Positions 35,730-59,461 of a DNA stretch of 64,000 nucleotides are shown in pieces. The notes under the pieces were generated by a model. That model had not been told where the DNA came from. It worked only from the letters and a program-made list of their open reading frames with translations, and made no database searches. Every line of letters begins with the position of its first letter. The first letter of the stretch is position 1. The position numbers and the translations under genes are program-made. This DNA comes from Escherichia phage P-GXEC-L2P5: the sequence record PQ843332.1. The stretch is one strand, 5' to 3'.

Positions 35730-37508
35730 ATGGCAGCGGGTACGCTATCCGTAACGAACAATAGCAAGGCTGTAGTAGGGGTCGGCACAACGTTTACCGC
35801 GTTTAAAGCGGGCGACTTCTTAACGCTGGTGGTAGGACAAGTCCCATACACCGTGGCAATCGCGTCCATTGAAAGCGCAACCGCGCTCACGCTGGTACTG
35901 CCGTTCGACGGCCCAACGGCAACCGGCCTTGCGTGGGATGGCGTTAAGCGCGATACCATGTCGCTGGCAACGATGGGCGTTACCGTACAGGCCCAAAAAG
36001 CATTGCGCTTGATGATTGCAGATGAAAACAACTGGCGTGCAATCTTCGGCGATGCTGAAGAAATCACAGTCACGCTCCCGAACGGGCAAGTTATGCAGGG
36101 TATGTCGTGGGGCTACCTGTCGTCTTTGCTGAAGGAAGTAGACCCCGTTGAGATGCGCAACCTGCAACAACAAGCCGCCGCATCGGAAGCAGCCGCGCAA
36201 GGATTCCGTAACGAGGCGGAAGGCTTCAAGAACGACGCCAACACCATCAAGACGCAGACCAGCCAACTTAAGGCAGATACGCAGGCTATCAAGGACCAAA
36301 CGAATCAGATCAAGACTGACACTGGCGTTATTCGTGATGAAGCCAATACCGCGAAGGAGGACGCGCAATCTGCCCGCACTGCCGCGCAAGGATTTCGCAA
36401 TGAGGCTGAACAATTCGCTAATAGTGTTAACCCGGAAAACCTACTTGCGAAGGCCAACAACTTAAGTGATGTTGCGGATGTGGCTGTGGCGCGCGAAAAC
36501 ATTGGCGTAGACCGCCTAACGCAAAACATAACCAGCGGCGAAACACAAATCAGGACTGCGGCGAAGAATAAATGGATCTTCGTTAAGGAAAATGGCGACT
36601 GGGGCGGGTGGGATAATGCCAACAATAAAGCCATGCCGCTGCCGATTGCATTCGGTGGTACGGGGCGCGGCGATAACGTCGCCGAGTTCCGCCAATTCAA
36701 ATCAAACGGCGACACCCAAGATGGGTTAATCATTACGCAGAACGGGTCTGGATTTGGTGGTGTATGCTGGGGGGATTCCGCCAATAAAGTACGCTGGCGC
36801 ATGGGGATTAACGACGCCGCGGGTAATTTTAAGTTGCACTCATATGACGCGTCGGGCGCGTACCGCGATACCTTTATGGAGATCTCTGGATCGGGGATAA
36901 GCGGCATGGTGTGTCATCGAGATATCATGGTCCGCCCAACAGAGACAGTTCCAGTGTTGTCTTTCGTCCTAAACAACGGAAAAGCTACCGTCCCGGCTGG
37001 TAACGTCCGCACGATGTGGGATACGGTTAACATCAATAGTAATATAATCTATAAATATTTTGAGAAGGGAGACGGCACTGGCTTCACAGTCAACTGGCCC
37101 TCATCTGGTGGTGTTATTGCCCTCCAGGGTACATCAGGAAGGGACTTTAAGAAAGATATTACCGACGCGGACGTTACAGAAGCGGTTGCACGCATTGAAC
37201 AAATGCGCATGGTGCGCTACGTGTATAAGGACGATGTGCAGGAGCGCGTCCGCTTCGGCATCATTGCCGAGGAAGCAGAAGAGATTGCGCCTCAATACAT
37301 CAAACACCGTGAGGAGACGTACGATGTGGAGGTGGACCCCGAGACTAACGCCATCGTCGGGGGTAAGACGCGCGACCGTCCGTCGGTAGACGTTAACCCT
37401 ATCGTGATGGACTTGATGGGGTGCGCACAATATGCGATCGCTGAGTGTAAACGCCTGGCGGCGGAAGTGGAGGATTTGAAAGCCGAGATCGCGGCGTTGA
37501 AGAAATAA
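35730..37508 (+). CDS. side tail fiber with C-terminal S74 intramolecular chaperone domain
   Basis: Central coiled-coil repeats (AQGFRNEAE twice); C-terminal RFGIIAEEAEEIAPQY resembles the S74 chaperone signature. Confidence 0.75.
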   Translation: MAAGTLSVTNNSKAVVGVGTTFTAFKAGDFLTLVVGQVPYTVAIASIESATALTLVLPFDGPTATGLAWDGVKRDTMSLATMGVTVQAQKALRLMIADENNWRAIFGDAEEITVTLPNGQVMQGMSWGYLSSLLKEVDPVEMRNLQQQAAASEAAAQGFRNEAEGFKNDANTIKTQTSQLKADTQAIKDQTNQIKTDTGVIRDEANTAKEDAQSARTAAQGFRNEAEQFANSVNPENLLAKANNLSDVADVAVARENIGVDRLTQNITSGETQIRTAAKNKWIFVKENGDWGGWDNANNKAMPLPIAFGGTGRGDNVAEFRQFKSNGDTQDGLIITQNGSGFGGVCWGDSANKVRWRMGINDAAGNFKLHSYDASGAYRDTFMEISGSGISGMVCHRDIMVRPTETVPVLSFVLNNGKATVPAGNVRTMWDTVNINSNIIYKYFEKGDGTGFTVNWPSSGGVIALQGTSGRDFKKDITDADVTEAVARIEQMRMVRYVYKDDVQERVRFGIIAEEAEEIAPQYIKHREETYDVEVDPETNAIVGGKTRDRPSVDVNPIVMDLMGCAQYAIAECKRLAAEVEDLKAEIAALKK

Positions 37509-37512
37509 ATAG

Positions 37513-37536
37513 AAGGGGCCATGCGGCCCCTTTTTT
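37513..37536 (+). terminator. rho-independent terminator between convergent genes
   Basis: GGGGCC-atgc-GGCCCC followed by TTTTTT. Confidence 0.8.
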
Positions 37537-38997: not shown

Positions 38998-39516
38998 TTA
39001 TTGCGTAAATTTTCGGGACCAAATCACCACACGCCCGACGAATTGCCGCGATGTTCTTCTCGCAATCTTCAATGATGACCAGTTCAGACACGTCCGCGTA
39101 GCAGACCATTTTGAACACGGCGCACGCTTTAAACTCAGGCGGCGTTCAATGATGACCAGTTCAGACACGTCCGCGTAGCAGACCATTTTGAACACGGCGC
39201 ACGCCTTAAACTCTGGCGGCGGGGTGTCGTCCAGCATGTGGCGCATAAACAACCGGCCTACGGGGAAGACCTCCAATTGCTCGGCGGTGGTGTCCCAGCA
39301 TTCTCGCTGCCGGTTGGTCAGATATGCGATCTCGAAGCCTTGCTCTTTATACATGCGCAGTAGCGGCAGCATATCCATGTTCAGGTCTTCGCGGACGTGC
39401 GCCTTGTGCCACTTCGCCCAAAAGGTGGATTTAGTTTTTATCCCCGGCACCAGGTCGGCGCGCGCATCGCTTGATCCATTAATAACGCCATCCAGGTCAC
39501 AAATCAGTAATTTCAT
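38998..39516 (-). CDS. HAD-superfamily phosphatase-like protein
   Basis: N-terminal MKLLICDLDGVI (HAD motif I DxDG). Confidence 0.5.
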   Translation of the reverse strand: MKLLICDLDGVINGSSDARADLVPGIKTKSTFWAKWHKAHVREDLNMDMLPLLRMYKEQGFEIAYLTNRQRECWDTTAEQLEVFPVGRLFMRHMLDDTPPPEFKACAVFKMVCYADVSELVIIERRLSLKRAPCSKWSATRTCLNWSSLKIARRTSRQFVGRVVIWSRKFTQ

Positions 39517-39606
39517 TTCAATTCCTCAATCAAATTTGCACGAACAATTGATCCATTAATAACGCCATCCAGATCACAAATCAGTAATTTCATTTCAATT
39601 CCTCAA

Positions 39607-39816
39607 TCAAATTTGCACGAACACTACGGGCGGAAAACGTGTCACACACACAAGATGACAGCGGGCAGTCATTACAAGCCAGCCAGTAAGGTCCATGCCC
39701 AGGATGTGTTCCGGACGTGACACACGACGCACTTTGTTCTCCCTCGGGTTTATTTGGTAGCGTTTAACAATTTCGTCCACGACGCGCATACTGCGATCAA
39801 CGACTAAGATATTCAA
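39607..39816 (-). CDS. small hypothetical protein (69 aa)
   Basis: ORF only. Confidence 0.3.
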   Translation of the reverse strand: MNILVVDRSMRVVDEIVKRYQINPRENKVRRVSRPEHILGMDLTGWLVMTARCHLVCVTRFPPVVFVQI

Positions 39817-39882
39817 GGAGTTCTCCTTCGCTCATTATTTCAATTTGTGCGCTGCCGGTGGGCGGCGCTTCGTCAAAGATTA

Positions 39883-40436
39883 TCAATTGCTGGCACTTGT
39901 TATTGCTCGGCCCGTTTCAATTTGTGCGCTGCCGGTGGGCGGCGCTTCGTCAAAGATTATCAATTGCTGGCACTTGTTATTGCTCGGCCCGACTTCGCCG
40001 GTTACAGCATGTATGAATCGGATCCGCCAGTCCAGAAGAATTATCAGGTTTGCAGTCTTCCGGGCCAGCTTCGCCCACTTCGTCGACGTGTCCTGATTCA
40101 GTAGCATGACGGTCCGGCGTCCGTGCGCCGCGCACTCGACCCACGGCAGCGGATCGGAATACGGCGGGTTGCACCACTTCCACCCTTTCAACTCTGACCA
40201 GTCCGCATCGAGCGCGCTGTGCTCTGCCGTGAAGTAACGCGGTAGCAGGTGGTTGGCATCGCTCGCCGCCATGTCATAACGGAATCTGTACTTCCGGCGC
40301 AGCGGTTTAAATAAAGCTGGCGGCGTGCGCCAGCTATCTTTTTGCTCACTCTTCTGCATGATCGGTACTTCCGGCGCAGCGGTTTAAATAAAGCTGGCGG
40401 AGTGCGCCAGCTATCTTTTTGCTCACTCTTCTGCAT
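39883..40436 (-). CDS. DNA N6-adenine methyltransferase (phage Dam family); frame broken by duplications
   Basis: MQKSEQKDSWRTPPALF N-terminus, DMAAS, NPPY catalytic motif. Confidence 0.75.
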
Positions 40437-40887
40437 GGTCTGTGTCTATCGCATAAAGTGGAGTCTTACCACCTTTATTGATGACGCGCTGCACGCGCTT
40501 TGCTTCTTCGACACTAAGCGGGCGCGCGTTATGGTAGATGCTGCCGTTTGTAGGGTTGCGCCACGCCATGAGCACAAGGTCTTTACGGTCGATCTTCGTT
40601 GTGCGACCTTTTGGGCGCACGTACTCCTCGGCACGTTTGCAATGCTCGCGCAAACCTTCGGCAGTGATGCGGTTTAGTGCAACGCTGGTTGTGTATCCGG
40701 TGCGCTGCATAATCCCCATCAATTCGAAAAGCAGTTCGAAACGCTCCTCTAGCTCCTGGCGCACTTTCTTCTCTCCTTCATATAGCGCCTGGTTGGTGTC
40801 AGCCACCGCGTTCGCACGTTCGGCCTGTTCGCGGGCTTCGAGGCATTGCGCGGCCCAGTAATTTTTCTCTTCTTGTAAAATTTTCAT
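40423..40887 (-). CDS. hypothetical protein (154 aa)
   Basis: ORF; tandem ATTGGTTGCAT motif upstream. Confidence 0.5.
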   Translation of the reverse strand: MKILQEEKNYWAAQCLEAREQAERANAVADTNQALYEGEKKVRQELEERFELLFELMGIMQRTGYTTSVALNRITAEGLREHCKRAEEYVRPKGRTTKIDRKDLVLMAWRNPTNGSIYHNARPLSVEEAKRVQRVINKGGKTPLYAIDTDHAEE

Positions 40888-40968
40888 CGTGTCGTCTCCG
40901 GGTATTAAAAAGGGCGTCCAAACCGGACACCCTCAATATAATGCAACCAATCTAATTATGCAACCAAT

Positions 40969-41292
40969 TTACGAATAAAAATTTGGGTCGCGTGCAACGT
41001 CTACCAGATACAGATTGCTGATTCGGTTGCCGTAGTGGCCTGGTGTTCGCTGGCGGCACACAACGGCGTAGCCTGGAGGAATTGTATTGCCGGTCGCGAT
41101 AATCCACGCCACGCGTGCGCCAGACAGCGTCTTTCCGTTGCATTCGATACGTGTTCCGCCGTCGGCAGTATTGATGTTGCCAATCTTGCAGCCGGTGGAC
41201 TTCAGACGAATGACGCCGGTTTTGCTGTCGTAGGAGAATAACTGGTTAGTCATTGCGACCGAAAAGTCGATGGCTTCGAATGTCGTATTCAT
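40969..41292 (-). CDS. HNH-like endonuclease, possibly degenerate
   Basis: NGK...ARVAWI...GN..SNL pattern of phage HNH proteins but no clear His/Cys metal ligands. Confidence 0.4.
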   Translation of the reverse strand: MNTTFEAIDFSVAMTNQLFSYDSKTGVIRLKSTGCKIGNINTADGGTRIECNGKTLSGARVAWIIATGNTIPPGYAVVCRQRTPGHYGNRISNLYLVDVARDPNFYS

Positions 41293-42138
41293 TTTAAATT
41301 TTCCTCGTTAACCGCTATCGCGAAGCCGCGCGGAGTGAGCGACCGGATTAATTTTGTGCGGGCTGATTTGCCTCCGAGGCGACTATACTGCTTCGAGTAC
41401 CCTTTTTCAACGAAAACAGGTTTCTTCTCTGGCATACGGAAGCCGTTGCCGGTCCATAAGCAGGTCAGCTTCGGATATGAATCGCGGGCGTTGATGTATT
41501 CTTCTCTGGCATACGGAAGCCGTTGCCGGTCCATAAGCAGGTCAGCTTCGGATATGAATCGCGGGCGTTGATGTATTCCGGGAAGAGCGGGTGTACGTCA
41601 TCATCCGGCAGATATCCCCCATACTCCCACGGGTCGAATGAGTGATCCGGTTTGCGCCACTGTGTGGAAAGCACACTGCGCGGATTCTCAATCATATACG
41701 GCACTTCGAAGAAGTCACCCAGGTAAGCGGCGATCTTCGCGGTGCGCACCGCCTTAAGCTGAAAGGCTGGGTCTTTTGCACGCCGAAGAAGTCACCCAGG
41801 TAAGCGGCGATCTTCGCGGTGCGCACCGCCTTAAGCTGAAAGGCTGGGTCTTTTGCACGCTTGCGCGGGAAAGCTGGCGCACCGCTCACTGCCAGATCCG
41901 TGCACGGAGGAAACGCATAGATGATATCTGGCGTACCGAAATCGCCATTCATCGCACGGTCTACAAAGTCCAGATCGATAAACTCATTGCGATAGCGGAT
42001 TCCGCGACCATAAATCCGGTAGTCAAGGTACGACCCGTGATCGGCTTCGGAGTAGTTGAAGCAATAACACTTATGCCCCATCTCGGCAGCACGCTCAATC
42101 ATCAAGCCGCTGCCGTCAAACAATGACCAGATTATCAT
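41289..42138 (-). CDS. DNA cytosine-5 methyltransferase-like protein; frame broken by duplications
   Basis: LFDGSG (motif I), FPPCTD (PC motif), ENP (ENV-like motif). Confidence 0.6.
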
Positions 42139-42211
42139 TTATAACACTTATGCCCCATCTCGGCAGCACGCTCAATCATCAAGCCGCTGCCGTCAAACAA
42201 TGACCAGATTA

Positions 42212-43942
42212 TCATTTGCGCGCCTTTTTAGCTTTCATGTATTCCATCAAGTCGTCCTGTATATCTCGCTTACTGTCGCGACGCTCGGCGACCAGTTCGT
42301 CTAGTGTTCCGCGCGCCTGGATAATGTAGACGAATACCGGTCGAGGGTGTCCGGCCTGCATCTGGCGAACCGGCCCGATACGTTCAACGATCTGCGAAAA
42401 GTGCTCAAAGTTCCAGGTATCGGAGAAGATTGCCAGGTGATGACCGCCGTCCTGCAAGTTAAGGCCGTGGCCCGCCGATGCCGGGTGTGCAAACATGATG
42501 GGGATCTCGCCCCTGTTCCACGCTTCCATATCCTTATTGCCCTGCTTACCCTTACCCAACGCGACGCCGTGCGGAAATTTCTTCTTAAGACGTGCCAGGT
42601 CATGCTTATACTGATACGCAACGAGCAACGGCGCGCCGTTCAACTCCTCCACGATACTTTCCAGTGCGTCCAGCTTCGCGTCGTGAATCTTCACCCACTC
42701 GTCGGTCCGTTCGCCGTCTTCGTCCACCTTATACACAGCGCCGGAAGCAAGCTGAAGGCACTTAATTGTCTTCGATGCCGCGTTCGCCGCTTCCACTGTT
42801 CCGCTTTCCAGTTCGGCAAATAGCTCGCTTTCAAACTGGTCGTAAATCTTGCGGGCTTTCTTCGGCAGGTCCACAACAACCGGCGTATAGATTGGCTTGT
42901 CGCACCCGAAGTATTCAGCCGCGTCAACGGTGAGGGATACATCTGACAGACGTTGTTGTATCTCTTTCTCGGAGTTCTTTAGCGGAGCGTGCTGCATAGT
43001 GAAGCTGCCAGGCTTAACAGGCTTGCTAATGAACCAGCGGTCGGTGAATGCCTTATAGCTACTACCGAGGCGTTCACCACCGTCGACGAACCACGTCTGA
43101 CCCCATAAGTCTTTCAAGCCGTTTGGTGCGGGTGTGCCGGTCAAGTTAATCCAGCGCTTGACGTGCTTATGTGCAATCGCCGCCAGTGCGCGTGCGCGCT
43201 TACTGCCCTGCTTGCTTCGATAGCCTTTCAGCTTAGTCGATTCATCGGCAACAACGACCGTAAAGGGCCACGCATCGCCGTAATAGTCGACCAGCCACTC
43301 AACCACATCGTAGTTAACACAAACCACGTTAGCGTCGCTCTCAAGCGCCGCAATACGGTCCTTCTCCGGCCCGGTGCCGTCTACAACCAGCAGGGATGAG
43401 AACCGCCATTTCTCCTGCTCCGGGGGCCATGTACCTGACGCAACACGCAGCGGGGCCAGCACCAGTACGCGGTCCTCATGATGGGACAGGACGCCAGTCT
43501 GGAACATTTTATTCAGCGCCCACATTGTCGCGCCGGTTTTACCCGATCCCATTGTCGCCCAGATATTACATCGCTTATGCTTGAGGATGAACGCGGTTAT
43601 CAACTTCTGATATTCGCGGCGTCGGAATCGTGCCATATCTTTATTCCGCCTTTTTCCAGACTTCGGTTTCACTGTTCCAGTTCCTTTTTGTAGCGTCGTA
43701 GTTGGTGGCGTGTCCGATGTGGACGCCTTTTTCCAGACTTCGGTTTCACTGTTCCAGTTCCTTTTTGTGGCGTCGTAGTTGGTGGCGTGTCCGATGTGGA
43801 CACCAGTAGCCCGGAAGCTCTTAAATTTTTGCCAGCACACCGTCAACGGCAGCGGGTCATTCATGCCAGCAATAAACCACACGCGATCGCCCGGTTTGCA
43901 TTCGCCCAGCTTGGTGAGTCGGTAATGTTCTTTCATCGTCAT
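42212..43942 (-). CDS. SF2 helicase (SNF2/DEAD-like)
   Basis: Walker A ATMGSGKT, DExx box VVADEST, C-terminal helicase domain; ATG 43942 with GGGAG RBS; duplications in the N-terminal extension. Confidence 0.8.
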   Translation of the reverse strand: MTMKEHYRLTKLGECKPGDRVWFIAGMNDPLPLTVCWQKFKSFRATGVHIGHATNYDATKRNWNSETEVWKKASTSDTPPTTTLQKGTGTVKPKSGKRRNKDMARFRRREYQKLITAFILKHKRCNIWATMGSGKTGATMWALNKMFQTGVLSHHEDRVLVLAPLRVASGTWPPEQEKWRFSSLLVVDGTGPEKDRIAALESDANVVCVNYDVVEWLVDYYGDAWPFTVVVADESTKLKGYRSKQGSKRARALAAIAHKHVKRWINLTGTPAPNGLKDLWGQTWFVDGGERLGSSYKAFTDRWFISKPVKPGSFTMQHAPLKNSEKEIQQRLSDVSLTVDAAEYFGCDKPIYTPVVVDLPKKARKIYDQFESELFAELESGTVEAANAASKTIKCLQLASGAVYKVDEDGERTDEWVKIHDAKLDALESIVEELNGAPLLVAYQYKHDLARLKKKFPHGVALGKGKQGNKDMEAWNRGEIPIMFAHPASAGHGLNLQDGGHHLAIFSDTWNFEHFSQIVERIGPVRQMQAGHPRPVFVYIIQARGTLDELVAERRDSKRDIQDDLMEYMKAKKARK

Positions 43943-44056
43943 GTCTCCCAAAAATGGCGGGACAAGCCCGCCGTATTAATTATTTTTGCTCTGCGCCGGT
44001 AATGTTCTTTCATCGTCATGTCTCCCAAAAATGGCGGGACAAGCCCGCCGTATTAA

Positions 44057-44230
44057 TTATTTTTGTTCTGCACGGTAGCGGCGCTGCCGTTCGCGCTCTT
44101 TCTTATTGCGGCACGATTTGCACTCTGCCCGATACCCGTCTGGACTGCGCGCAGTCTTACCGGTGTATTTGTGGAACTGGGATAGCGGCTTTACACAGCC
44201 GCAATTACTACAACGTTTTTCTTCAATCAT
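44057..44230 (-). CDS. small zinc-ribbon-like protein
   Basis: CSNCGC...CKSC cysteine pairs; ORF 44057..44365 with likely start at MIEEKR. Confidence 0.4.
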   Translation of the reverse strand: MIEEKRCSNCGCVKPLSQFHKYTGKTARSPDGYRAECKSCRNKKERERQRRYRAEQK

Positions 44231-44270
44231 CTCTAAAATCCTCGATATGGCTAACCGGCACACTATACCG

Positions 44271-44549
44271 CTATGCGACCAATTCAGCAACCAATAAATC
44301 GCAGTCGGATATGTTGTCGATAACGCGAACGTCAGCACCGCGGCGGGCCATTCGCTCATGTTCACGTACCTGGTGCGGCTTCGGTTTTCCTCCGGGGCGC
44401 TTCACTTCGACGAACACTATTTTGCCGTTGATGATAATAATCAGGTCGGGCGCACCCGCGCGCCCCTCCCATGCCAGTTTTCGGCAGAAGCCGCCAACCT
44501 CTTTCACCCGTCGCATCAGGTGGCTTTGAATCTTGCCTTCTGGTGTCAT
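44271..44549 (-). CDS. VRR-NUC domain nuclease
   Basis: GAPDLIIIINGKIVFVEVKRPGGK PD-(D/E)XK core; ATGA overlap with the HNH stop. Confidence 0.6.
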   Translation of the reverse strand: MTPEGKIQSHLMRRVKEVGGFCRKLAWEGRAGAPDLIIIINGKIVFVEVKRPGGKPKPHQVREHERMARRGADVRVIDNISDCDLLVAELVA

Positions 44550-45148
44550 TGTCGGCTTTTCCTTACGGCCGCGATGGCCGGTCCGATAAACTTCTTCATT
44601 TCGTCCGGGGTAAACCGGTCCCCGCGGGCTATGTTGCACTCTACGCAGCACGGCACGCAGTTATCTTTCGTATGGCCTACTGCGTTGTCGAGTCGGTCCG
44701 CGCCATTGTCGCCGGTGAATCCGCAGTATGCGCATGGTTGAGAAGTAAGGCGTAGCACGTCCTCGGTGGTTAGGTCGGTGGTTAGCCCCTTCCTTTCGTC
44801 CGCCTTACGGTACTGAAAGAGCTTATAGTAAGCTCGGATCTCTGGTGTCCGGTGGTTGTACTCACGGCGGGACTTATTAGAGCACGACCTGCATTCTTTA
44901 CGAATGTGTGACTGGCTTGCCCGGTTTCCGGGCCGGAAGTTTTCCGGCGTAAGCGGCTTGCGTTCCCCGCACTGACGGCACGTTACGATCTCCCCGGTAT
45001 ACTCTCGCCATACTTCGCGCGGCGGCGCTCCTCTTTCCTTATCACGTCTCTCTTTCTTATACGCCGCCATGCATTTGGCACACCACGACTGACCCTTGTT
45101 GAAAGCGGACTCATCTTTATCCGTATTACAACGCCCACAATGTTTCAT
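44546..45148 (-). CDS. HNH endonuclease (zinc-finger rich)
   Basis: CAYCGFTGDNGADRLDN...GHTKDNCVPCCVECNIAR HNH core, several CxxC pairs, GGGGGG RBS. Confidence 0.7.
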   Translation of the reverse strand: MKHCGRCNTDKDESAFNKGQSWCAKCMAAYKKERRDKERGAPPREVWREYTGEIVTCRQCGERKPLTPENFRPGNRASQSHIRKECRSCSNKSRREYNHRTPEIRAYYKLFQYRKADERKGLTTDLTTEDVLRLTSQPCAYCGFTGDNGADRLDNAVGHTKDNCVPCCVECNIARGDRFTPDEMKKFIGPAIAAVRKSRQ

Positions 45149-45214
45149 ATACCCCCCGAAAAAGAAAACGCCAGACAATATTGCCTGACGTTTCCGCTAA
45201 AAGCAACATTTCCG

Positions 45215-48200
45215 CTACTTGCGGTATCGATACATACAATCGCCCTCTGCGGCAAGTGGGAAGCCTTTCGCCCAAATCGGCAGGTCGCACATCAGCGCGC
45301 AAAGTTCCTCGGTCGTGTAGTCGTCAGTGTCCGGCACTTCGGTGATCAATTCATCGTGCACTGACAGGACGATTTCATAGCCCGCAGCTTCAACGCCAGG
45401 CATGGACCACGCGAGAATATCGCGACACAACGCTTGCACGATGTTCTCCGTAAGTTTGCCGCCGTAGGTGTACTGGAATCCCCACTGGCGCGTCGTCTGA
45501 TTCTCGCCCTGATATTTGATGCGGGTACTGGTGCGCTTCTTGCCGGTGTCTTCGTCGATCTCGGTCGTGACAGACAGTGCGATGCCGGGGTAGCTCATGA
45601 TGCGCCCCGACGGCAACTCAATTTTTAACCACCACCCCGCGGCGTTCGGGTCGTCGCGCTCCTCGTCAAAGGTTGGGTCGTGCTTCGCCTTCGTACGGAC
45701 AATCTTGAGCGCTTTTCTACCGTCCGGGCGAACGTTCGCACCAGCCCAGTATGCTTTGCCCGGATTGCGGATTGCACACAACACCGCGTCCTCAAGCTCG
45801 GCCCAAAAGGCTACCGTCTTCGGGTGAGCCTCACGCCACATACGTTTGATCGCGTCACAAGTAAGCCATACGTTTTTCGGCAGTATGTAAGTCGGGCGCT
45901 CGTCCTTCTTGCCCGGCTTCGGTGGGCGTTTCGCTTCGTTAATGCGGGCGTACTCATAACCGCGCTTCGCCGCCGCCCAAATGTGATCCGGGAACGTGCC
46001 TTTCATCACGTCCGCCATAGTGTAAAGGTCGAGTCCCAGGTTTTTAGCGAACTGCAAGAACGCCGCGACGCCGCCACCATAGCCCAGGCCAAGCTCGCAG
46101 TTATGCGCCACCAGAAAACCAGACTTAGACGCAATAAGGAACCGGTTTCCGTCTTCCACATCAATCAGGTCGTAAACCGGCTCGCAATAGGTTAACTTCC
46201 CGTTCCAGTTCAGCAATGCGGGTAAGGGCTTCATCGTACTTTCTCTGAAGCTCGGGCACGCTGCGCCGGTTACGGCAGTTTTCCGAACGGCTGACAAACC
46301 GAAGGTTTCCAGGCTCATAGTTGCCGTCTGTATCGATCCGGTCCATTTCGAAGTCGGGATTATCCCAGCCGTCCAGCGTTTGAACGTAGAGAAGAAACGA
46401 CCTTTTATCTCTCTTCCATTCGTCACATACGGCAATCCCACGACTGCCGTAGTTTTTATACCCTTTGGCGCGGGGGTTTGTCGTTCGTGATATTGCCGCT
46501 GACAGCCGGTTGAGCAGCCGCGTTCTGTGCGCATCGTCTGGCATTGCGTCATCGTAGCAAAAATACTGTTTACGATACCGCTTTGTCGCTTCAATTGCGC
46601 AGAGGTTGCATTGGGATGTTTTACCCCTTCGGACGTTGTCATACCCGACGCGTCCTGGCATCGCTCCGCAATCACATTGGGCCAGCAGTTGTCTGTGCCC
46701 CTGTCGTTTTGGTAATTCGCGCAGGATAACCAGGCGTCCATACCTCTCGCCAGGGCGCGGGCCATCGTGCACCTGTCTGAAACGAGTTGCCTTGCCTCCT
46801 TCCATGAATGCGTCAAGATTTTGTGGTCTTCTGTCATCAAGACCCCGTCCACGTCTATCACTGGTTTCCACCCCATAAGGTGCGCGCCTTGTGTACTCAC
46901 CCATTTTTCGCCGTTCCATACTTTATCCGTTGATGTTACGGCCATAATATCCTTGAACCCGCCATTGGTCAATACTTGGGTATGGCGGTGCAAGCAAGCC
47001 TTACCGATCTGGCGTAAGTCCTTGCGGTTAGCTTTAATGTAATCCGGGTCCAGGCCGAACATTTTACCGGCAGTCTCGCAATAAATATCGCGACCGGCCT
47101 TAAACACCATTAACGCGGTTTTCTCGCCAGCGACCCAGGCAAGGCCGCGCCCTTCCACGTTGGAGTAGTCCGCGACGACAAACTTCTTGCCCTTAGCCGG
47201 AATGATGCACCCGCGAACGGTCGAGGCGGTTAGCTTCGATATGTCATACGCCCAGTGCGCTGTCCCGCGTAACAGGGAGTTGATGCCGTTGGTGAGCATG
47301 TGCGACCGAACCCAAAACGAGACGTCGCTTTCACCCTCGCGGCGTTTAATCTTCCCTTCGTGGTCGTCGCTGTACTCGCCACGCGCCAGGTTTTGAGGTT
47401 GAAAGCCTTTACCGGCCCAGCGTAGCGTGCGCTTTGCCCCACCATACTGAAGACACCCACGGCGGCGACCATCTGCGGATAAGCCGTTAACTAGCGGATT
47501 GTACTTAGTCGATGCCGTTGATGACGCTCCGAGGCGCATTTCTATAAGCGCTTTGCCTTCGTCGGGGAAGTCCGGGTCTTCAAGCAGGTCGTTAAGTGTG
47601 GATTTCTGCGCGTTGTGGATTGTGAACGCCGGGGCGATATCACGCAGGATTGGCAGGAAGTCATTGCCTGTCAGTTTACCACCAAATCGCTCCCAGGCTT
47701 CTTCCTTCAATTCTTCCTTATGCGCCTGCACCGCTTTGATCGCGGCGTTCGCCAGGTCAACGTCGACGTAGAAGCCGCGGTCGTTAATCAACTGGTCGAT
47801 GAGCAGGATTTCATCTTCCTTAGGCGAGTTTCCCCAGTCCGGTATGCGCCAGTAGACTTCACGCATTGCGATAATATCCAGCGCGGCATAGCGCAGAAAT
47901 TTGGCCCATTCTTCCGGGTGAGTCTCGCGAGTGTAGCGGCGGATTTTGTAGGTCTTAGGGGTAGGCTTACAGAATCGGTTAATCAGCGCCTTGCCTGCCT
48001 TATCCTTCGCGTGCTCTGCGTCAACGCCCAGAACCTGGCACTGCATATCGAGGCTACCGGGCAGCGCGTGGCGAAAGGCCATAATCATAGTGTCTTCGAT
48101 CTGGCTTACCGGCAGGTCAATACCCCACTTCTCGCGGATAACCAGGCGGTCAAACAGGAGGCCGTTAGCCATCACTATTTTAGCCTTCTTGCGGGATACC

Positions 48201-48403
48201 CGGCGGAGCGCCTTGCGCAGTTCACGCGGCATTGTGGGGGATTCAGTGGCATCCCATGTCTGCACGCGGCCCTCGTCTATGGCGTAGGTGCAAATCATAA
48301 TCTCTGTGGTTGGGTGCTCCGCGTAGGCGTACGCCCCAACTTTCTTCAGGTCCACCCCGCTAAATGTCTCGGTGTCGAGAAACAGGCGTTCGAAGTCTTT
48401 CAT
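45215..48403 (-). CDS. DNA polymerase, family A, with 3'-5' exonuclease domain and an intein inserted in motif B
   Basis: Exo LDTET; motif A DYSNVEGR; motif B split as RQIGK | intein | ELGLGYGGG; motif C VHDE; continuous 1062-aa ORF. Confidence 0.85.
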   Translation of the reverse strand: MKDFERLFLDTETFSGVDLKKVGAYAYAEHPTTEIMICTYAIDEGRVQTWDATESPTMPRELRKALRRVSRKKAKIVMANGLLFDRLVIREKWGIDLPVSQIEDTMIMAFRHALPGSLDMQCQVLGVDAEHAKDKAGKALINRFCKPTPKTYKIRRYTRETHPEEWAKFLRYAALDIIAMREVYWRIPDWGNSPKEDEILLIDQLINDRGFYVDVDLANAAIKAVQAHKEELKEEAWERFGGKLTGNDFLPILRDIAPAFTIHNAQKSTLNDLLEDPDFPDEGKALIEMRLGASSTASTKYNPLVNGLSADGRRRGCLQYGGAKRTLRWAGKGFQPQNLARGEYSDDHEGKIKRREGESDVSFWVRSHMLTNGINSLLRGTAHWAYDISKLTASTVRGCIIPAKGKKFVVADYSNVEGRGLAWVAGEKTALMVFKAGRDIYCETAGKMFGLDPDYIKANRKDLRQIGKACLHRHTQVLTNGGFKDIMAVTSTDKVWNGEKWVSTQGAHLMGWKPVIDVDGVLMTEDHKILTHSWKEARQLVSDRCTMARALARGMDAWLSCANYQNDRGTDNCWPNVIAERCQDASGMTTSEGVKHPNATSAQLKRQSGIVNSIFATMTQCQTMRTERGCSTGCQRQYHERQTPAPKGIKTTAVVGLPYVTNGREIKGRFFSTFKRWTAGIIPTSKWTGSIQTATMSLETFGLSAVRKTAVTGAACPSFRESTMKPLPALLNWNGKLTYCEPVYDLIDVEDGNRFLIASKSGFLVAHNCELGLGYGGGVAAFLQFAKNLGLDLYTMADVMKGTFPDHIWAAAKRGYEYARINEAKRPPKPGKKDERPTYILPKNVWLTCDAIKRMWREAHPKTVAFWAELEDAVLCAIRNPGKAYWAGANVRPDGRKALKIVRTKAKHDPTFDEERDDPNAAGWWLKIELPSGRIMSYPGIALSVTTEIDEDTGKKRTSTRIKYQGENQTTRQWGFQYTYGGKLTENIVQALCRDILAWSMPGVEAAGYEIVLSVHDELITEVPDTDDYTTEELCALMCDLPIWAKGFPLAAEGDCMYRYRK
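46100..46996 (-). mobile_element. intein (Hint domain) within the DNA polymerase
   Basis: Block A CLHRHTQVLTNGGFKDI, block B LMTEDHKILT, block F/G PVYDLIDVEDGNRFLIASKSGFLVAHN followed by Cys. Confidence 0.75.
46161..46919 (-). CDS. HNH homing endonuclease domain encoded inside the intein in a different frame from the polymerase
   Basis: GERYGRLVIL...CDCG...SQCNLC zinc region, GYKNYGSRGIAVCDEW, DRIDTDGNYEPGNLRFVSRSENCRNRR. Confidence 0.6.
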   Translation of the reverse strand: MERRKMGEYTRRAPYGVETSDRRGRGLDDRRPQNLDAFMEGGKATRFRQVHDGPRPGERYGRLVILRELPKRQGHRQLLAQCDCGAMPGRVGYDNVRRGKTSQCNLCAIEATKRYRKQYFCYDDAMPDDAHRTRLLNRLSAAISRTTNPRAKGYKNYGSRGIAVCDEWKRDKRSFLLYVQTLDGWDNPDFEMDRIDTDGNYEPGNLRFVSRSENCRNRRSVPELQRKYDEALTRIAELEREVNLLRAGLRPD

Positions 48404-48570
48404 TGCTTTATCCTCACTACGGCGTCAGCGCTGCCGATCATGGAGAAGATGCCGTCGGACAGGGCGATCTCTTCGCCGTTGTTGCGAATCTCGGCAACTG
48501 TGAAATATTCCCCCAGTAGCTTGGACCATACTTGCATTCCGACTTTTACTTCGCTGGCTTTAATACGCAT
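48400..48570 (-). CDS. small hypothetical protein (56 aa) overlapping the polymerase start
   Basis: Hand-translated MRIKASEVKVGMQVW...; ATGA overlap with the polymerase ATG. Confidence 0.3.
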   Translation of the reverse strand: MRIKASEVKVGMQVWSKLLGEYFTVAEIRNNGEEIALSDGIFSMIGSADAVVRIKQ

Positions 48571-48583
48571 TTTTCATTGTCCT

Positions 48584-48609
48584 GTTAAAAAGCCCGCATT
48601 AAGCGGGCT
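48584..48609 (-). terminator. rho-independent terminator on the minus strand
   Basis: AAGCCCGC-ttaat-GCGGGCTT followed by a T run on the minus strand; copied again at about 48663 by an artefact duplication. Confidence 0.6.
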
Positions 48610-48782
48610 TGAATAGTGGGCTTTGCCCTTAACGGCGGCGACGGTTACGTGGTGCTTCGTCTTAAAAAGCCCGCATTAAGCGGGCTTGAATAGTGGGCTT
48701 TGCCCTTAACGGCGGCGACGTTTACGTGGTGCTTCGTCTTCGTCGTCGTCCATTAAGCGGGCTTGAATAGTGGGCTTTGCCC

Positions 48783-49478
48783 TTAACGGCGGCGACGTTT
48801 ACGTGGCGCTTCGTCTTCGTCGTCGTCTTCGTCATCGTCATCACGACGTTTTGACTTTTTGGACTTACGCGGGCTTTCATCTTCGTCATCGTCGCCCAGG
48901 TCTTCGTCGGAACATGAAGACCCGCCACCGCCGAAGGCTTCGCCGTCATCACGGAAGCGCATACCCAGCAGACCACAGCCTAAGCCTTTGCCGTTGGTAT
49001 TGTTCCAGGCCCAAATATCTAAGGAAACGTTGCAATAGCAACCGGAATAGATTTCCTTCCCTTCGATTTCGTCGCCGTCGATGGTCAGACCCTGCTCCGT
49101 CTGCTTCTCGCCTTCGGAAGTCTGGATGATCGGCTGTTTGAACGATTTGGCGTTGATGTACAACATGCCTTCGAATTCTTCGGTTACTTCGTCGCGCTCG
49201 TCACCGTCGCGAACTGCGCATTCCTTAGAATCCTGGGCGTAGTGGCGGTCCATCCACTTATCGGCATTCTTCTCGGATTTCAGCTTGTCGGTGAGCACTG
49301 CGCGCGCTGCCGCTTCCACTTTGTCCACCTGCGGATCTTCTTTATCAAGAAGAATCACGGCGCGGTATGCCGGTTTTTGTCCATCCTGTTTAGGGGTATC
49401 ACGTTCCCAAATTTTAAGGAAACATACACGCACATTTTTCAGGTTGACTTTAGCCATTTTCCAATTCCTCATTTTCAC
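48783..49478 (-). CDS. DUF2815-type SSB-like protein
   Basis: N-terminus MAKVNLKNVRVCF; acidic C-terminal tail; adjacent to DUF2800 and the polymerase. Confidence 0.7.
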   Translation of the reverse strand: MKMRNWKMAKVNLKNVRVCFLKIWERDTPKQDGQKPAYRAVILLDKEDPQVDKVEAAARAVLTDKLKSEKNADKWMDRHYAQDSKECAVRDGDERDEVTEEFEGMLYINAKSFKQPIIQTSEGEKQTEQGLTIDGDEIEGKEIYSGCYCNVSLDIWAWNNTNGKGLGCGLLGMRFRDDGEAFGGGGSSCSDEDLGDDDEDESPRKSKKSKRRDDDDEDDDEDEAPRKRRRR

Positions 49479-49624
49479 ATGTATCGGGGTTATTGGAAGC
49501 CACCCCGTTCGGCTTGGTTGCTAATTTACTCCATTTTCCAATTCCTCATTTTCACATGTATCGGGGTTATTGGAAGCCACCCCGTTCGGCTTGGTTGCTA
49601 ATTTACTTGGTTGCGCCTGAGCGG

Positions 49625-49867
49625 TCAAGCATTTTCATTAAAAAGATTTCGGGTAACGTAGTTGGTCGCGTTCTCGATCCAGCTTAACGGCGGGCGGTTG
49701 ATGTTCTTCTCCACCCAATCGACGGCAGCTTCGCTATAGCCGTCATCCAGCCAGCGGGTCGGATGTCTAATCATCCATGCCACCATTAACACGCCTTGCA
49801 CACAATGCAGGATAAAGCCCAGCGCGCCGATAACAAACATCAATAAGATTGCGAATACTTTATTCAT
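49625..49867 (-). CDS. small membrane protein (80 aa)
   Basis: Hydrophobic N-terminus MNKVFAILLMFVIGALGFIL; same gene as the partial ORF at 1..169. Confidence 0.45.
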   Translation of the reverse strand: MNKVFAILLMFVIGALGFILHCVQGVLMVAWMIRHPTRWLDDGYSEAAVDWVEKNINRPPLSWIENATNYVTRNLFNENA

Positions 49868-51367
49868 TGCTTAAGTCCTCGTCAGTAGCTACAGACCACG
49901 CAGGGCGCGGGTCGTCGATGGGTGCTAATACCGGTTTAGCTGGTGCGCGCGTGATTTTATCACACAGCTTCGCCCATACTTTCGGCTTCTCGTCCTTCAA
50001 TACCTTCTCGGCATCAGTAGGGCTGAGTAATGTTTCTTTGTACATCACATCGCGCTTGATCCGGGCCTTCGTGAAGATTTCAATCACTTCGCTTTCGTCC
50101 GCCCACTTGCGAATCCCTTCCTTACCTGCAACCATCTTGAGGCCCAGCGATTCGCCGTCGCCCGCCATCACAGCCTTGAATACCGCGGACTCGATAGCCT
50201 TGATGTGCTGGCGCATTGCGTCCAGGCCTTCATAAGCCTTGCGCAGTTCCGCGGCGGTCATAGCGCCGGGGGCCGCTTCTTTCTTGCCACGCTTCGCACG
50301 TCGTGCCGCTTTGCGGGCTTCGCGGGCCATATTGCGGTCGTGATTGGCGCATTCTTCCTCTGTCGCAATACTCACGTCGTCGCCCAGGTCTTCGTCTGTT
50401 GCCGTTGGTGGGGTCATCGTGCCGATTGCAGCCTTAGCGCGGGCGCTACACTGATCCGCAAATCTGCACCACTGACACGCATCAACGCTCGGTCGGAAGT
50501 CGGCGCGGGTGAGTCCCTTTTTTCCGCGGGAGTACGCTTCCAGGGCGGCGATAGCACGCTTGGACGCAAACTTAGCGAATATCTCCAGGGCTTCTACCGA
50601 AATATCCCACTCCGACGCCCCGCCGCAATACGGCTGGAAGATAACAAGGCGCACGGTTGTAATGTCGTACATAGTTTTCAGCTTGCGCAGCAAGCCCAGC
50701 GCATACAACATAAGCTGTTTGTTTTCTTTCGCCTCGACCTTATGCCGCCCCGTCTTCAGGTCGCCAACAATCAGCATGTACGTGCCGTCGGTCTTCTTCA
50801 TGACCATGACCATATCGGCAGTACCGAACGTCTTAACCCGGTTGCCGTCGATCTCGAAGCCTGAGTGAAGGACGCGGGTCAGATCGGCGCGCATCTCAAG
50901 CTGAACAAACTCCGCCACTTCGAGGAGCGGTCGCCAGTGGTCGATGTACGCGTCGCACTGTTTCACCATGTCGTCGTTGACCAATACGCCGCCTTTCGGT
51001 GCTTTAGGGTGTGCCTTTCGATGTACGCGTCGCACTGTTTCACCATGTCGTCGTTGACCAGTACGCCGCCTTTCGGTGCTTTCGGGTGGGCCTTTACCGG
51101 CCCCTTACCTTCGTTCTCTACGTAGCACCCTTTGTACGTCTTAGCGGTTATCAGCTTCTCCCCGGCAATGATGCGGTTTAGCACCACTTCAGATACGGTG
51201 TGCATACTCGTACCGTTAATCGCCGCTTGCCCGGATTCGTTCGGGATATCTTTTTCCACCACCAGGGCGGCGGGACACCCCATCCATTTTTTAGCACCGG
51301 ATGGGCCAAGTAATGAGTGTTCTGTATTGCTACCGGATTGCGTTTTACGTTTTGGTTTAATCGCCAT
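49860..51367 (-). CDS. unit 2: DUF2800-type nuclease; frame broken by duplication near 50950..51070
   Basis: ORFs 49860..51035 and 50963..51367 with the same motifs as 162..1746. Confidence 0.7.
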
Positions 51368-51443
51368 TATTCCACCCGTGTAAACTGGACAATTACATAT
51401 TTCACATTACCGGATTGCGTTTTACGTTTTGGTTTAATCGCCA

Positions 51444-51623
51444 TTATTCCACCCGTGTAAACTGGACAATTACATATTTCACATTCGCCAAGCCCGCTTT
51501 TTCGACACGGCTGCGCACTTCATGCTGCGCATCGGTCCAGCACATCGAGGCGTCCTTGTTAACAACAAGAAAAGAGAAATGGTCGTTTAATTCGTGGCAA
51601 GTTGCCAGCACGAAAAATTTCAT
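51444..51623 (-). CDS. unit 2: small hypothetical protein (diverged homolog of 1823..2002)
   Basis: Hand-translated MKFFVLATCHELNDH... Confidence 0.35.
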   Translation of the reverse strand: MKFFVLATCHELNDHFSFLVVNKDASMCWTDAQHEVRSRVEKAGLANVKYVIVQFTRVE

Positions 51624-51874
51624 TATTTTGTCTCCCAGCGGTCAATTGTTTTTGCTTCGGATGCAACGGCGAAGCGAACATATTCCAGATTGGAGTCAGC
51701 CCAAATATAAAAATCGGGGTTAGTAAAGGTGGTGCGCTTAATTTGCGCGGGGGTGTTGCGGCGTTTATCTATTACGGCAACGCGGGATTGAAAGCTGCCG
51801 ATGCGTTCGAATAGCCAATAGTACGGGCGCTGGTCGCGGGAATCCACCGCCTCGATTAGCGTGAATCGTGCCAT
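51623..51874 (-). CDS. unit 2: hypothetical protein (homolog of 2002..2253)
   Basis: ORF, 83 aa. Confidence 0.55.
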   Translation of the reverse strand: MARFTLIEAVDSRDQRPYYWLFERIGSFQSRVAVIDKRRNTPAQIKRTTFTNPDFYIWADSNLEYVRFAVASEAKTIDRWETK

Positions 51875-51922
51875 TGTCTCGTCCTCTAAAAAGAGGCCCG
51901 CTAATATGCGGGCCGGATAATA

Positions 51923-52048
51923 TTAATCTTCACCGCCGAGTTGTTTATAAACCTCGTCCGGGTCGTCGCCTCTTTCTTCGCAGAAGGCGGTGAATGCCGC
52001 CCAATTTTCTGCTATGAAATCGAGCATGATTCTCATTTCATAGTCCAT
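51923..52048 (-). CDS. unit 2: small hypothetical protein (homolog of 2302..2427)
   Basis: Same start/stop arrangement as unit 1. Confidence 0.3.
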   Translation of the reverse strand: MDYEMRIMLDFIAENWAAFTAFCEERGDDPDEVYKQLGGED

Positions 52049-52052
52049 GATA

Positions 52053-52644
52053 TTAATCTTCCAGTTCGAAATAAGTTTCGACGATTTCTTTTAGCTCTTT
52101 GTGGAAGTCTTCGACGTCGTCATCTTCCAGCTTAGCGATTGATTTGATCTCGAACGATTCCAGAAGGTCGTCGAATTCGTCGTTCGCATCGTCGTCATCG
52201 CCACCGGCGATAATCGCGGCATACTGTTTGATTTCGTCGCGCATCTCCGCCAGCGGATCGGCATCTTTCTTACCTTTGCCTTTCGCCGGTGCTTTCTTAG
52301 ACTTAGCCGGTTTTTCGTCTTCGGCATCGGCATCGTCGTCGTCATCTTCTACGACTTCTTTTTTGGCCTTACCTTTCGCCGGTGCTTTTTTGGTTTTCGC
52401 CGGTGCTTCGTCTTCAGCGTCGTCATCTTCTACGACTTCTTTTTTTTACCTTTCGCCGGTGCTTTTTTGGTTTTCGCCGGGGCTTCGTCTTCAGCGTCGT
52501 CATCTTCTACGACTTCTTTTTTGGCCTTAGACGGCTTCTTGTCTTCCTGTTTACCAACGGCAGCGCCAACGGTTTCATAATGCTTAGCGATGATTTCCAG
52601 TGCTACTACGCCGCGAGTGATCAGGTTTACGATTTGCTCAAACA
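52053..52644 (-). CDS. unit 2: acidic/lysine-rich repeat protein; frame broken by duplication near 52370..52500
   Basis: ORFs 52053..52244 and 52430..52873 share the KPAKAKKAPAKGK repeats. Confidence 0.5.
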
Positions 52645-53123
52645 TGGTATATCTCCGATTGGTTAAGTTTAGGTGTCGACCATTAACTTCGTCGGTGGCC
52701 TTAACATAGTGCCAGGTTACGCGTTCTCCCTTTCGGGTAGTGGACCTGGTTATATAATCACGGTTGGGAATCCTGACACTTCGATCCGGCCCCTGCGTTG
52801 CCCCTCTCCAGTTTGCGTCCTGCATCCTGTCGACGAGGTGAATATTAGATTGGTTGCAGAAGGGAGTCAACAACTAATTTCAAAAAAAAAGCGCCGAAGC
52901 AAAATGCGACGGCGCTAACCAATAAGAGACAATGAGACGGGAGTATTATTACACGCGTGCGCGCCCGTTTCAATATTCCAAAGGAGTTGACACCACCAAT
53001 AAGAGACAATGAGACGGGAGTATTATTACACGCGTGCGCGCCCGTTTCAATATCCCAAAGGAGTTGACACCCTGCGGTTTTAGGTGTAGTTTCATTGGTC
53101 ATTAACCAACCGGAGACAGAATA

Positions 53124-53453
53124 ATGAATATCAACGACGCAATCGAAATGCTAACGAAGACTGTCTGCAGTGAGACTAGCCGGTCCTGGGCGTATACCGA
53201 TGCCGTGGGGGCGGTGCTATTTGAAATCGAACGTCTGCGACTTACCGAAAAAGAATTGCGCGCCAGGCTGGAATTACTCAACGGTACGGCAGCCAGCAAG
53301 CTGCAAAAGCACAATGAAGAAATGGAAGAATACAAAAAACAGGTTATCCGTCTACGTGAGGAAGGTAAATCCTGGGCTATGATCGCCGAGCTAACCGGAA
53401 TCAACCAGAGCACCGTGCGCTCCTGGGTACGCAATAATAAAACTTCGAAGTAA
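53124..53453 (+). CDS. unit 2: HTH regulator (diverged N-terminus, conserved C-terminal HTH)
   Basis: 109-aa ORF homologous to 3430..3759. Confidence 0.6.
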   Translation: MNINDAIEMLTKTVCSETSRSWAYTDAVGAVLFEIERLRLTEKELRARLELLNGTAASKLQKHNEEMEEYKKQVIRLREEGKSWAMIAELTGINQSTVRSWVRNNKTSK

Positions 53454-53463
53454 GGCAACGGCA

Positions 53464-55959: not shown

Positions 55960-56030
55960 ATCCTATTTTGAGTGTTTTTAGCTGGTCGCATTGGTTGCCG
56001 TGCAGTATAAATATAGTGAATAGTTATGCA

Positions 56031-56210
56031 ATAAAACTGCATAAAGTAAGCGGGACAAAAAGCGGGACAAACTTGGGGCGGGACAAAGCGGGACAGCACC
56101 CCCGTCCCGCCCCGGATGACGCGGCCTGGAGAGGAGCGGGACAGGCGGGACAACTCCCAGTCTTTCAGACTAGACGGGGGTCAGCGGCCCCCCTCGTCTG
56201 AGACTGCATA
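56031..56210. repeat. unit 2: GCGGGACA iteron array plus GC-rich hairpin
   Basis: Same TGCATAAA / GCGGGACA / hairpin architecture as 6256..6428. Confidence 0.7.
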
Positions 56211-56422
56211 AAATCCGGGATTGCAAAATACACGGCAGCACATTGGAAATCGCGGTCGTCGATGAACTGGGCAACCAATGCGAGTTGCAGAATGTGGTGT
56301 GAAAAATGCAGTTTGCAGTCACAGCTGATAGCGATCAACTTTTTCATGCGCATGATTAATATTGGTTGCATTCATGCCAGCACCCTGCTAGATTGGTTGC
56401 ACACCAACATGAGGGCTGAACA

Positions 56423-57710: not shown

Positions 57711-57774
57711 TATGTGGCGGTAGTCTGGCGGCCCTGGTGCTGTTGGCGTCGGTTATTAGTCTGGTTAAATACCT

Positions 57775-59445: not shown

Positions 59446-59461
59446 TACGAGGTAACACAGT

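Follow-up and report, generated by a model that had tools for sequence, protein, structure and literature searches.

Replication, methyltransferase and nuclease genes beside the polymerase of an SO-1-like Dhillonvirus, and the 77-bp duplications that interrupt them

Phages of the genus Dhillonvirus have genomes of 43-46 kb according to the BASEL study, and Sodalis phage SO-1 (NC_013600 / GQ502199) is annotated with nine genes, gp29 to gp37, between gp28 and the DNA polymerase gene gp38. Here we describe the equivalent region of Escherichia phage P-GXEC-L2P5 (sequence record PQ843332.1), located at positions 39,883 to 45,148 of a 64,000-nucleotide stretch that was analysed as a whole and is referred to below as the window. 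A first-pass annotation had singled out this region as a cluster of DNA modification and nuclease genes downstream of the polymerase, with Dam-like and Dcm-like methyltransferases, an HNH-like protein, a superfamily 2 (SF2) helicase, a zinc-ribbon protein, a VRR-NUC nuclease and an HNH endonuclease. That observation is confirmed: Dam (PF05869), SNF2-rel_dom and VRR_NUC scored above their Pfam cut-offs, and PHROG families were matched by all nine open reading frames (ORFs) of the region. The block consists of ordinary, already annotated replication and methylation genes of an SO-1-like coliphage of the genus Dhillonvirus. More specifically, the sequence is that of a Dhillonvirus near-identical to SO-1, and the region is very likely the distal portion of its leftward early (replication) operon, in which a polymerase-centred replication and recombination module is joined by two orphan methyltransferases. 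The feature is already known, a near-identical reference genome having been deposited in 2009.

A megablast comparison of positions 39800-45200 with phage genomes returned 162 records, 135 of which cover at least 80% of the region, and the best match was SO-1 at 99.6% nucleotide identity. The gene block is conserved in ~160 Dhillonvirus records. The minus strand from 39797 to 45148 carries all seven genes named in the first-pass annotation, in the order given there, together with two that it had not mentioned, the gp30-like and gp34-like genes (Table 1). The block adjoins the downstream side of the family A polymerase gene, and its nine genes have the order and strand of SO-1 gp29-gp37; the Dcm-like and gp37-like proteins are 100% identical to those of SO-1. 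What SO-1 does not have are seven extra 77-bp tandem copies present in the window, which are considered below and were removed to obtain the gene models in Table 1. Membership in Dhillonvirus is supported by this identity and synteny and by a collapsed unit of ~45.9 kb.

The proteins were searched against Pfam (with curated cut-offs, plus a relaxed search to E 10) and PHROGs, and several of them against NCBIfam, PADLOC and PDB. Pfam supports the Dam-like protein, the helicase and the VRR-NUC protein, and gave no match for the Dcm-like and gp37-like proteins, no significant match for the gp31-like protein and no Lar match for the gp35-like protein. Start and stop codons overlap in SO-1 between gp29 and gp30, gp31 and gp32, gp32 and gp33, and gp36 and gp37, and these overlaps of a few bases between several neighbouring genes are consistent with a single operon. 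A rightward tail-fibre gene converges on the leftward operon, and a GC-rich hairpin that scores as a terminator on both strands lies where the two meet. A promoter scan found 8 candidates against 7.4 expected, which is chance level, and no operon boundaries were drawn from promoters.

Table 1 Coordinates of the features discussed, in the numbering of the window
Feature	Position	Strand	Remarks
Dam-like N6-adenine DNA methyltransferase, gp29 equivalent	39797..40359	-	161 aa after repair
gp30-like protein	40423..40887	-	154 aa
gp31-like HNH_3-like protein	40969..41292	-	107 aa
Dcm-like small C5-cytosine DNA methyltransferase, gp32 equivalent	41289..42138	-	231 aa after repair
SNF2-family (SF2) helicase/DNA translocase, gp33 equivalent	42212..43636	-	474 aa
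gp34-like small protein	43641..43942	-	74 aa; start at 43942
gp35-like stand-alone zinc-ribbon protein	44057..44230	-	57 aa, CxxC...CxxC and basic tail
VRR-NUC nuclease, gp36 equivalent	44271..44549	-	92 aa, stand-alone PD-(D/E)xK
gp37-like HNH/endonuclease VII-like protein	44546..45148	-	200 aa, two N-terminal zinc ribbons
Seven 77-bp tandem duplications in region	39838..44071	.	first copies at 39838, 40284, 41422, 41707, 42064, 43647, 43918
Terminator-like hairpin between polymerase stop and gp37 start	45195-45164	-	14-bp stem, then T run
Family A polymerase gene	45215-48403
In-frame insert in polymerase gene	46100-46996	-	299 aa, intein termini
HNH ORF within the insert	46161-46919	-	252 aa, different reading frame
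Promoter-like TTGACC-17-TATTAT	46972-46944		just upstream of the HNH ORF
Triple 77-bp unit	48585-48827		3' end of gp2.5-like gene
Tail-fibre gene	35730-37508		rightward
GC-rich hairpin	37511-37534		scores as terminator on both strands

Replication core, HNH-like genes and zinc ribbon

The helicase is an SNF2-family SF2 ATPase. It matches Pfam SNF2-rel_dom (PF00176) with E = 1.7e-10 and 40.9 bits against a cut-off of 24.9, and phrog_62 with 3.6e-156; its PDB matches are Snf2, INO80 and Rad54-like chains at 2.6e-06 and weaker, with both lobes covered. Helicase motifs I, II, III and VI can be recognised, and GSGKT, DEST, LTGTP and GHGLNLQ are visible in its sequence. The VRR-NUC protein matches Pfam VRR_NUC (PF08774) with E = 6.6e-06 and 26.6 bits against a cut-off of 23.8, and over its full length it matches PDB entries 4QBN (1.2e-22) and 4QBO (4.6e-14). 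These two stand-alone VRR-Nuc proteins share with it a length of ~92 aa and the PD-(D/E)xK residues, here D35, E48 and K50, and at ~90 aa it lacks the FAN1 insertion. Stand-alone VRR-Nuc proteins were found to be dimeric and to cleave four-way (Holliday) junctions (Pennell et al. 2014, PMC4103454). By analogy, the gp36 equivalent is predicted to be a dimeric Holliday-junction resolvase. Recombination, which the first-pass annotation had proposed for the cluster, is thus reasonable for the VRR-NUC protein with its near neighbours among crystallised resolvases, but the helicase and VRR-NUC genes together are best read as a replication module.

How would such a module work? In the proposed mechanism, the family A polymerase and the gp2.5-like single-stranded DNA (ssDNA)-binding gene upstream of it, followed by the VRR-NUC resolvase and the SNF2-type translocase, would form a replication core. 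This core would most likely serve genome replication, the remodelling of stalled or branched intermediates and the resolution of junctions before packaging. Two further genes of the block are fixed components (gp31 and gp35) and one is an optional component (gp37).

The gp37-like protein matches phrog_1035 (endonuclease VII) with 1.3e-42 and has no Pfam match; its HNH-like C-terminus resembles the PacI HNH domain at the level of motifs, which is a non-significant match (E = 4.9). At 90% identity or above it occurs in only 27 phage records, compared with the ~160 records of the genus, and phage KS_S9 lacks it cleanly, with its polymerase and VRR-NUC genes directly adjacent. This sporadic presence suggests that gp37 is probably a mobile, free-standing homing endonuclease, and in the mechanism it would be an optional HNH homing cassette between the polymerase and VRR-NUC genes. 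A terminator-like hairpin separates the polymerase stop from the gp37 start, and it may be part of the inserted cassette, as the polymerase gene abuts the VRR-NUC gene in KS_S9.

The gp31-like protein shows the opposite distribution: it was found in 161 phage records, at 80% identity or above in 156, which amounts to essentially every Dhillonvirus. It matches phrog_99 (HNH endonuclease) with 1.5e-16, and Pfam HNH_3 reached only E = 0.074. In the alignments the sequence reads VVCRQR...GHY...NL where HNH_3 has DH, and the canonical first histidine is replaced by cysteine, leaving the protein without the catalytic histidine. Five of the six Dhillonvirus homologues have this cysteine, as does the Eiauvirus homologue, and the sixth, from SSL-2009a, diverges over the stretch. 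The gp31 gene is a fixed core gene, and judged from these residues its product is probably not an active homing nuclease. The homing activity put forward in the first-pass annotation therefore fits gp37, with its patchy distribution and clean insertion, and does not extend to gp31.

In a pairwise comparison (E = 2e-05), the zinc-ribbon protein gp35 and the second ribbon of gp37 share 42% identity across 45 aa, and gp35 matches phrog_5558 ('Lar-like', 6.5e-17) as well as the ribbon regions of EndoVII and HNH PHROG families. Its identification as a Lar-like restriction alleviation protein was rejected: the label comes from PHROGs, and no Pfam Lar match was obtained to E 10. The best explanation is that gp35 is a copy of the zinc ribbon of gp37.

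Both gp31 and gp35 look like domesticated remnants that would bind DNA rather than cut it. The fuller proposal, that both derive from homing endonucleases and now assist the minimal Dcm or the replisome by binding DNA, as accessory or specificity factors and not as nucleases, is a long shot. Its support lies in two observations, namely that a gp31-like gene adjoins the methyltransferase genes in Eiauvirus too, and that gp35 is retained in genomes without gp37. The gp31 start overlaps the stop of the small Dcm, which is poor in target-recognition sequence.

Two small genes complete the block. The gp30-like protein has no match in Pfam, NCBIfam, PADLOC or PDB, and no KxDG ligase motif in its sequence. 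The designation 'DNA ligase' given to gp30 by SO-1 and PHROGs is unsupported and a propagated annotation only. The gp30-like protein has 214 homologues, of which 120 listed are at least 76% identical, many of them on ~44-kb contigs. Its AlphaFold2 model (predicted local distance difference test, pLDDT, 62; predicted template-modelling score, pTM, 0.35) is too poor for a fold search; it places a long helix at the N-terminus ahead of a small alpha/beta domain. The gp34-like protein matches phrog_9291 (unknown function) with 2.2e-47 and no other family in Pfam, NCBIfam or PADLOC. Among the labels propagated through the records, those without support are 'DNA ligase' (gp30), 'Lar-like' (gp35), 'HNH endonuclease' (gp31) and 'type I intron' (polymerase).

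Two methyltransferases and restriction

The Dam-like protein belongs to the phage-type Dam family. Nearly the whole PF05869 domain is matched (E = 5.7e-36, 124 bits against a cut-off of 28.1), phrog_111 is matched with 5.5e-56, and the NPPY motif is visible in the sequence. The phage-type family members VT-2 Dam and T1 Dam methylate GATC, and the target of the window protein is, from its family membership, probably GATC as well. A paper on MT-A70 methyltransferases was set aside as evidence for this specificity, since it concerns a different family.

The Dcm-like protein matches phrog_757 with 3.8e-82. Its family numbers more than 2600 small phage proteins, a few of which carry a precomputed PF00145 match. 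Among 38 diverse homologues the residues F7-G9-S10-G11 (FxGSG, the S-adenosylmethionine (SAM) loop), P77-P78-C79 and E125-N126-P127 are invariant, as are R136 and, in the C-terminal RSLTPRGFA, R214-S215-L216-x-P218-R219-G220. These residues correspond to the motifs of C5-methyltransferases (I, FxGxG; IV, PC; VI, ENV; and the C-terminal motif). The AlphaFold2 model has a pLDDT of 90.9, and the best 48 Foldseek matches to it are all catalytic domains of DNMT3A, DNMT3B or DNMT3C with probabilities of 0.99-1.0, the top matches being DNMT3A/3B catalytic domains (E 3e-06, probability 1.0). From the model, the protein appears to be a small C5-methyltransferase with a DNMT3-like fold and a minimal target-recognition region.

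A close parallel is the Dcm of the T1-like phage K42. A preprint on retron Ec86 reports that K42 Dcm, encoded by a 711-bp gene, produces 5-methylcytosine (5mC) on the multicopy single-stranded DNA (msDNA) of the retron, as measured by liquid chromatography-mass spectrometry, and thereby triggers retron Ec86/Eco1. In that work the catalytic residues are C82 and E128 and the binding residues K175 and K176, and the C82A/E128A/K175A/K176A mutant lost its 5mC activity. The CCWGG of the msDNA was mutated to test it as the sensing site, and the retron was found to be triggered through CCWGG. The spacing of C82, E128 and K175 equals that of C79, E125 and K172 in the window protein, with an offset of 3, and the second lysine, K176, is a leucine in the latter. 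K42 is of a different phage family, and homologues from T1-like phages are ~43-62% identical to the window protein. On the basis of gene size, residue spacing and these homologues, the window protein appears to belong with K42 Dcm, and by analogy its target is probably CCWGG.

Self-methylation of the phage DNA, as proposed in the first-pass annotation, is supported by homology: both methyltransferases are intact after repair and their motifs are complete, with NPPY and PF05869 in Dam and the C5 motifs and fold in the Dcm-like protein. In the proposed mechanism, Dam and the small Dcm would be co-transcribed with the replication core, so that new phage DNA would be methylated faster than by the host enzymes, and this methylation would guard only against restriction enzymes whose sites overlap Dam or Dcm sites.

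Several points tell against this account of a replication module with two orphan methyltransferases. The Dam-like protein scores 88 bits, below the cut-off of 97 for the NCBIfam equivalog TIGR01712, and for this reason its GATC specificity is assumed rather than demonstrated. The Dcm-like protein has no sequence match in Pfam (E up to 10, PF00145 included), NCBIfam or PDB, and the similarity of its model to the DNMT3 fold is moderate, with template-modelling (TM) scores of 0.44-0.53. Its kinship with K42 Dcm was judged from gene size, residue spacing and the homologues in T1-like phages. In the BASEL study, type I and II restriction-modification systems acted comparatively well against Dhillonvirus phages, and any anti-restriction benefit would therefore be narrow, limited to sites that overlap the methylated motifs. 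Finally, the roles offered for gp30, gp31, gp34 and gp35 are guesses.

A further question is whether the cluster is mainly an anti-restriction or counter-defence island, in which the methyltransferases, a 'Lar-like' gp35 and the nucleases would act together against host restriction. This was essentially the emphasis of the first-pass annotation. Two orphan methyltransferases are indeed present, and the PHROGs and SO-1 labels for gp35 read 'Lar-like restriction alleviation protein'. Moreover, GATC (174 sites) and CCWGG (150 sites) are not depleted, with observed/expected ratios of 0.81-0.99 and 0.95-1.30, respectively, and the fact that the genome does not avoid these sites is weakly compatible with protection by methylation. 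However, gp35 is better explained as a copy of the gp37 ribbon and lacks a Pfam Lar match, and in Jerseyvirus and Eiauvirus the helicase and VRR-NUC genes likewise accompany the polymerase, forming a replication module with it. The BASEL data also argue against an island of this kind, as the Dhillonvirus phages are comparatively restriction-sensitive and, in the related Drexlerviridae, methyltransferase genes carried by the phage did not translate simply into resistance to restriction. In addition, a phage Dcm can be a liability, as with the triggering of retron Ec86; given the apparent grouping of the small Dcm with the retron-triggering enzyme, the methylases of the block may be a liability as well as a shield. 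An anti-restriction island is accordingly unlikely to be what the cluster mainly is, and the protection against host restriction that had been suggested is an inference. Taken as a whole, the interpretation in the first-pass annotation finds partial support.

Could the Dcm-like protein be something other than a DNA C5-methyltransferase, for example an enzyme acting on RNA or a nucleotide, or an inactive DNA-binding protein? The missing Pfam, NCBIfam and PDB matches would allow this, as would the small size of the protein (231 aa), the brevity of its target-recognition region and DNMT3 TM-scores of only ~0.45-0.53. However, the PPC cysteine, the ENP glutamate, the FxGSG SAM loop and RSLTPRGFA are invariant in all 38 homologues, every one of the 48 best Foldseek matches is a DNMT3 catalytic domain, and K42 Dcm, with equal size and spacing, yields 5mC and loses this activity when mutated. 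Such a function is for these reasons most improbable, and the reading of the protein as a small C5-methyltransferase is preferred.

The 77-bp duplications and the state of the assembly

Repeat searches and a direct scan revealed tandem duplications of exactly 77 bp at 64 sites across the 64-kb window, for example at 391, 8944, 25023, 37800, 48585 and 63829. The two copies differ by 0-4 bases, and most pairs are mismatched at 1-4 bases rather than identical. Periods of 55-127 bp were tested across the window, and no signal other than 77 was found. In the region considered here the query of 5401 nucleotides exceeds the 4862 nucleotides of SO-1 by 539, that is 7 x 77, and the alignment falls into 8 pieces.

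The consequences for the genes follow from 77 not being a multiple of 3, so that an extra copy within a gene shifts its reading frame in the raw window. In the ORF listing for 36-49 kb, peptide stretches recur in adjacent ORFs. The raw Dcm-like gene is split by two extra copies into three ORFs (41289-41534, 41465-41749 and 41692-42138), and a raw 579-aa ORF at 42212-43951 is gp34 fused to the helicase via the duplication at 43647-43800; the gp34-like span holds one extra copy at 43724-43800. Similarly, one extra copy at 39915-39991 within the Dam span replaces the C-terminus, and the raw ORF ends at 39883 where the true stop is at 39797. Once a copy is deleted from every duplication, nine minus-strand ORFs reappear with exactly the lengths they have in SO-1, and the collapsed sequence aligns colinearly with SO-1 over 12.3 kb at 99.2% identity.

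The same treatment of all duplications reduces the window to 58,995 bp. The last ~13 kb of the collapsed window are a second copy of its first 13.5 kb at ~92% identity, a relation that in raw coordinates links 1-14500 with about 49500-64000. Because the end copy is only ~92% identical, the sequence would have run past one genome length (~45.9 kb) into a different Dhillonvirus strain, and this run-on reflects either a chimeric assembly path or a concatemer.

We conclude that the duplications almost certainly arose when segments of an assembly graph of mixed strains were joined with their k = 77 overlaps left untrimmed. The value 77 is a standard largest k-mer size in SPAdes, and edges joined untrimmed would give such a pattern. 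The apparent gene breaks are an assembly artefact and not biology. The converse, that the broken ORFs are genuine and that the duplications inactivate Dcm and remodel the helicase and Dam in a degenerate or defective genome, is barely credible, for although the copies are literally present in the window and most pairs differ by 1-4 bases, all 64 sites measure exactly 77 bp with the other tested periods silent, they hit structural and replication genes window-wide where frameshifts would be lethal in essential genes, SO-1 (the single relative compared base by base) has none of them and alignments with relatives break into 8 or more pieces instead of running colinearly throughout, and the ~92% identical second copy past ~45.9 kb points to a chimeric path through the assembly graph.

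Within this pattern, a single site has the 77-bp unit in three copies. The gp2.5-like ssDNA-binding gene has this site at its 3' end, and beyond it the identity of the collapsed sequence with SO-1 falls to ~93%.

With the assembly faulty, apparent pseudogenes, gene fusions and repeats anywhere in the window should be distrusted. The biological payoff of the region is small: well over a hundred genomes contain this textbook-style module, which has been annotated since 2009. What is of use is that the assembly artefact has been diagnosed and that propagated labels can be corrected.

Polymerase intein and related replication modules

The polymerase gene next to the block contains an insert that is exactly in frame relative to the 763-aa polymerase of KS_S9. 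It lies in polymerase motif B, begins with Cys1, ends with His-Asn and is followed by Cys+1, which are the termini of an intein. The SO-1 record carries the label 'type I self-splicing intron' here, and a group I intron was rejected: an Rfam scan of 39500-48600 with E up to 1 returned nothing relevant, and intein termini are present instead. At 95% identity or above the intein is found in only ~8 records (Sodalis SO-1, Shigella EP23 and a few Escherichia phages), and at 80-90% identity in ~156 records, mostly of Salmonella Jerseyvirus. Jerseyvirus records already annotate the polymerase as 'intein-containing DNA polymerase precursor'.

Within the intein lies an HNH ORF in a different reading frame, preceded by a promoter-like sequence (Table 1). 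Both frames are open in the Jerseyvirus copies, which are 83.6% identical at the nucleotide level. In the overlap, 63 of the 105 substitutions fall at third positions of the HNH frame, and outside it substitutions fall at third positions of the intein frame. The predominance of HNH-frame third positions in the overlap suggests that the HNH protein is under selection and that the intein linker is merely kept free of stops. Out-of-frame endonucleases within actinophage inteins are described as rare and newly reported in a 2025 preprint, and a paper from 2025 reports an HNH hidden out of frame within the insert of a phage methylase. The window intein with its nested HNH is an example of this rare, non-canonical architecture recently described in actinophages.

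How does the block as a whole compare with the replication modules of other phages? In Jerseyvirus, represented by Salmonella phage LP31, the ssDNA-binding gene, polymerase, VRR-NUC, a small ORF, Dcm and helicase lie together; the Dcm gene comes before that of the helicase, and there is no Dam, gp30, gp31 or gp37. In Eiauvirus, represented by Edwardsiella phage eiAU-183, the polymerase, VRR-NUC, helicase, a gp31-like gene and two methyltransferases are grouped; the small Dcm is replaced by a larger methyltransferase, and the HNH gene differs as well. Both modules carry, on one strand, a family A polymerase, VRR-NUC, a small ORF, an SNF2 helicase and cytosine/adenine methyltransferases, with the gp2.5-like ssDNA-binding gene or its neighbourhood also present, and both converge on tail-fibre genes, as the block does in the window.

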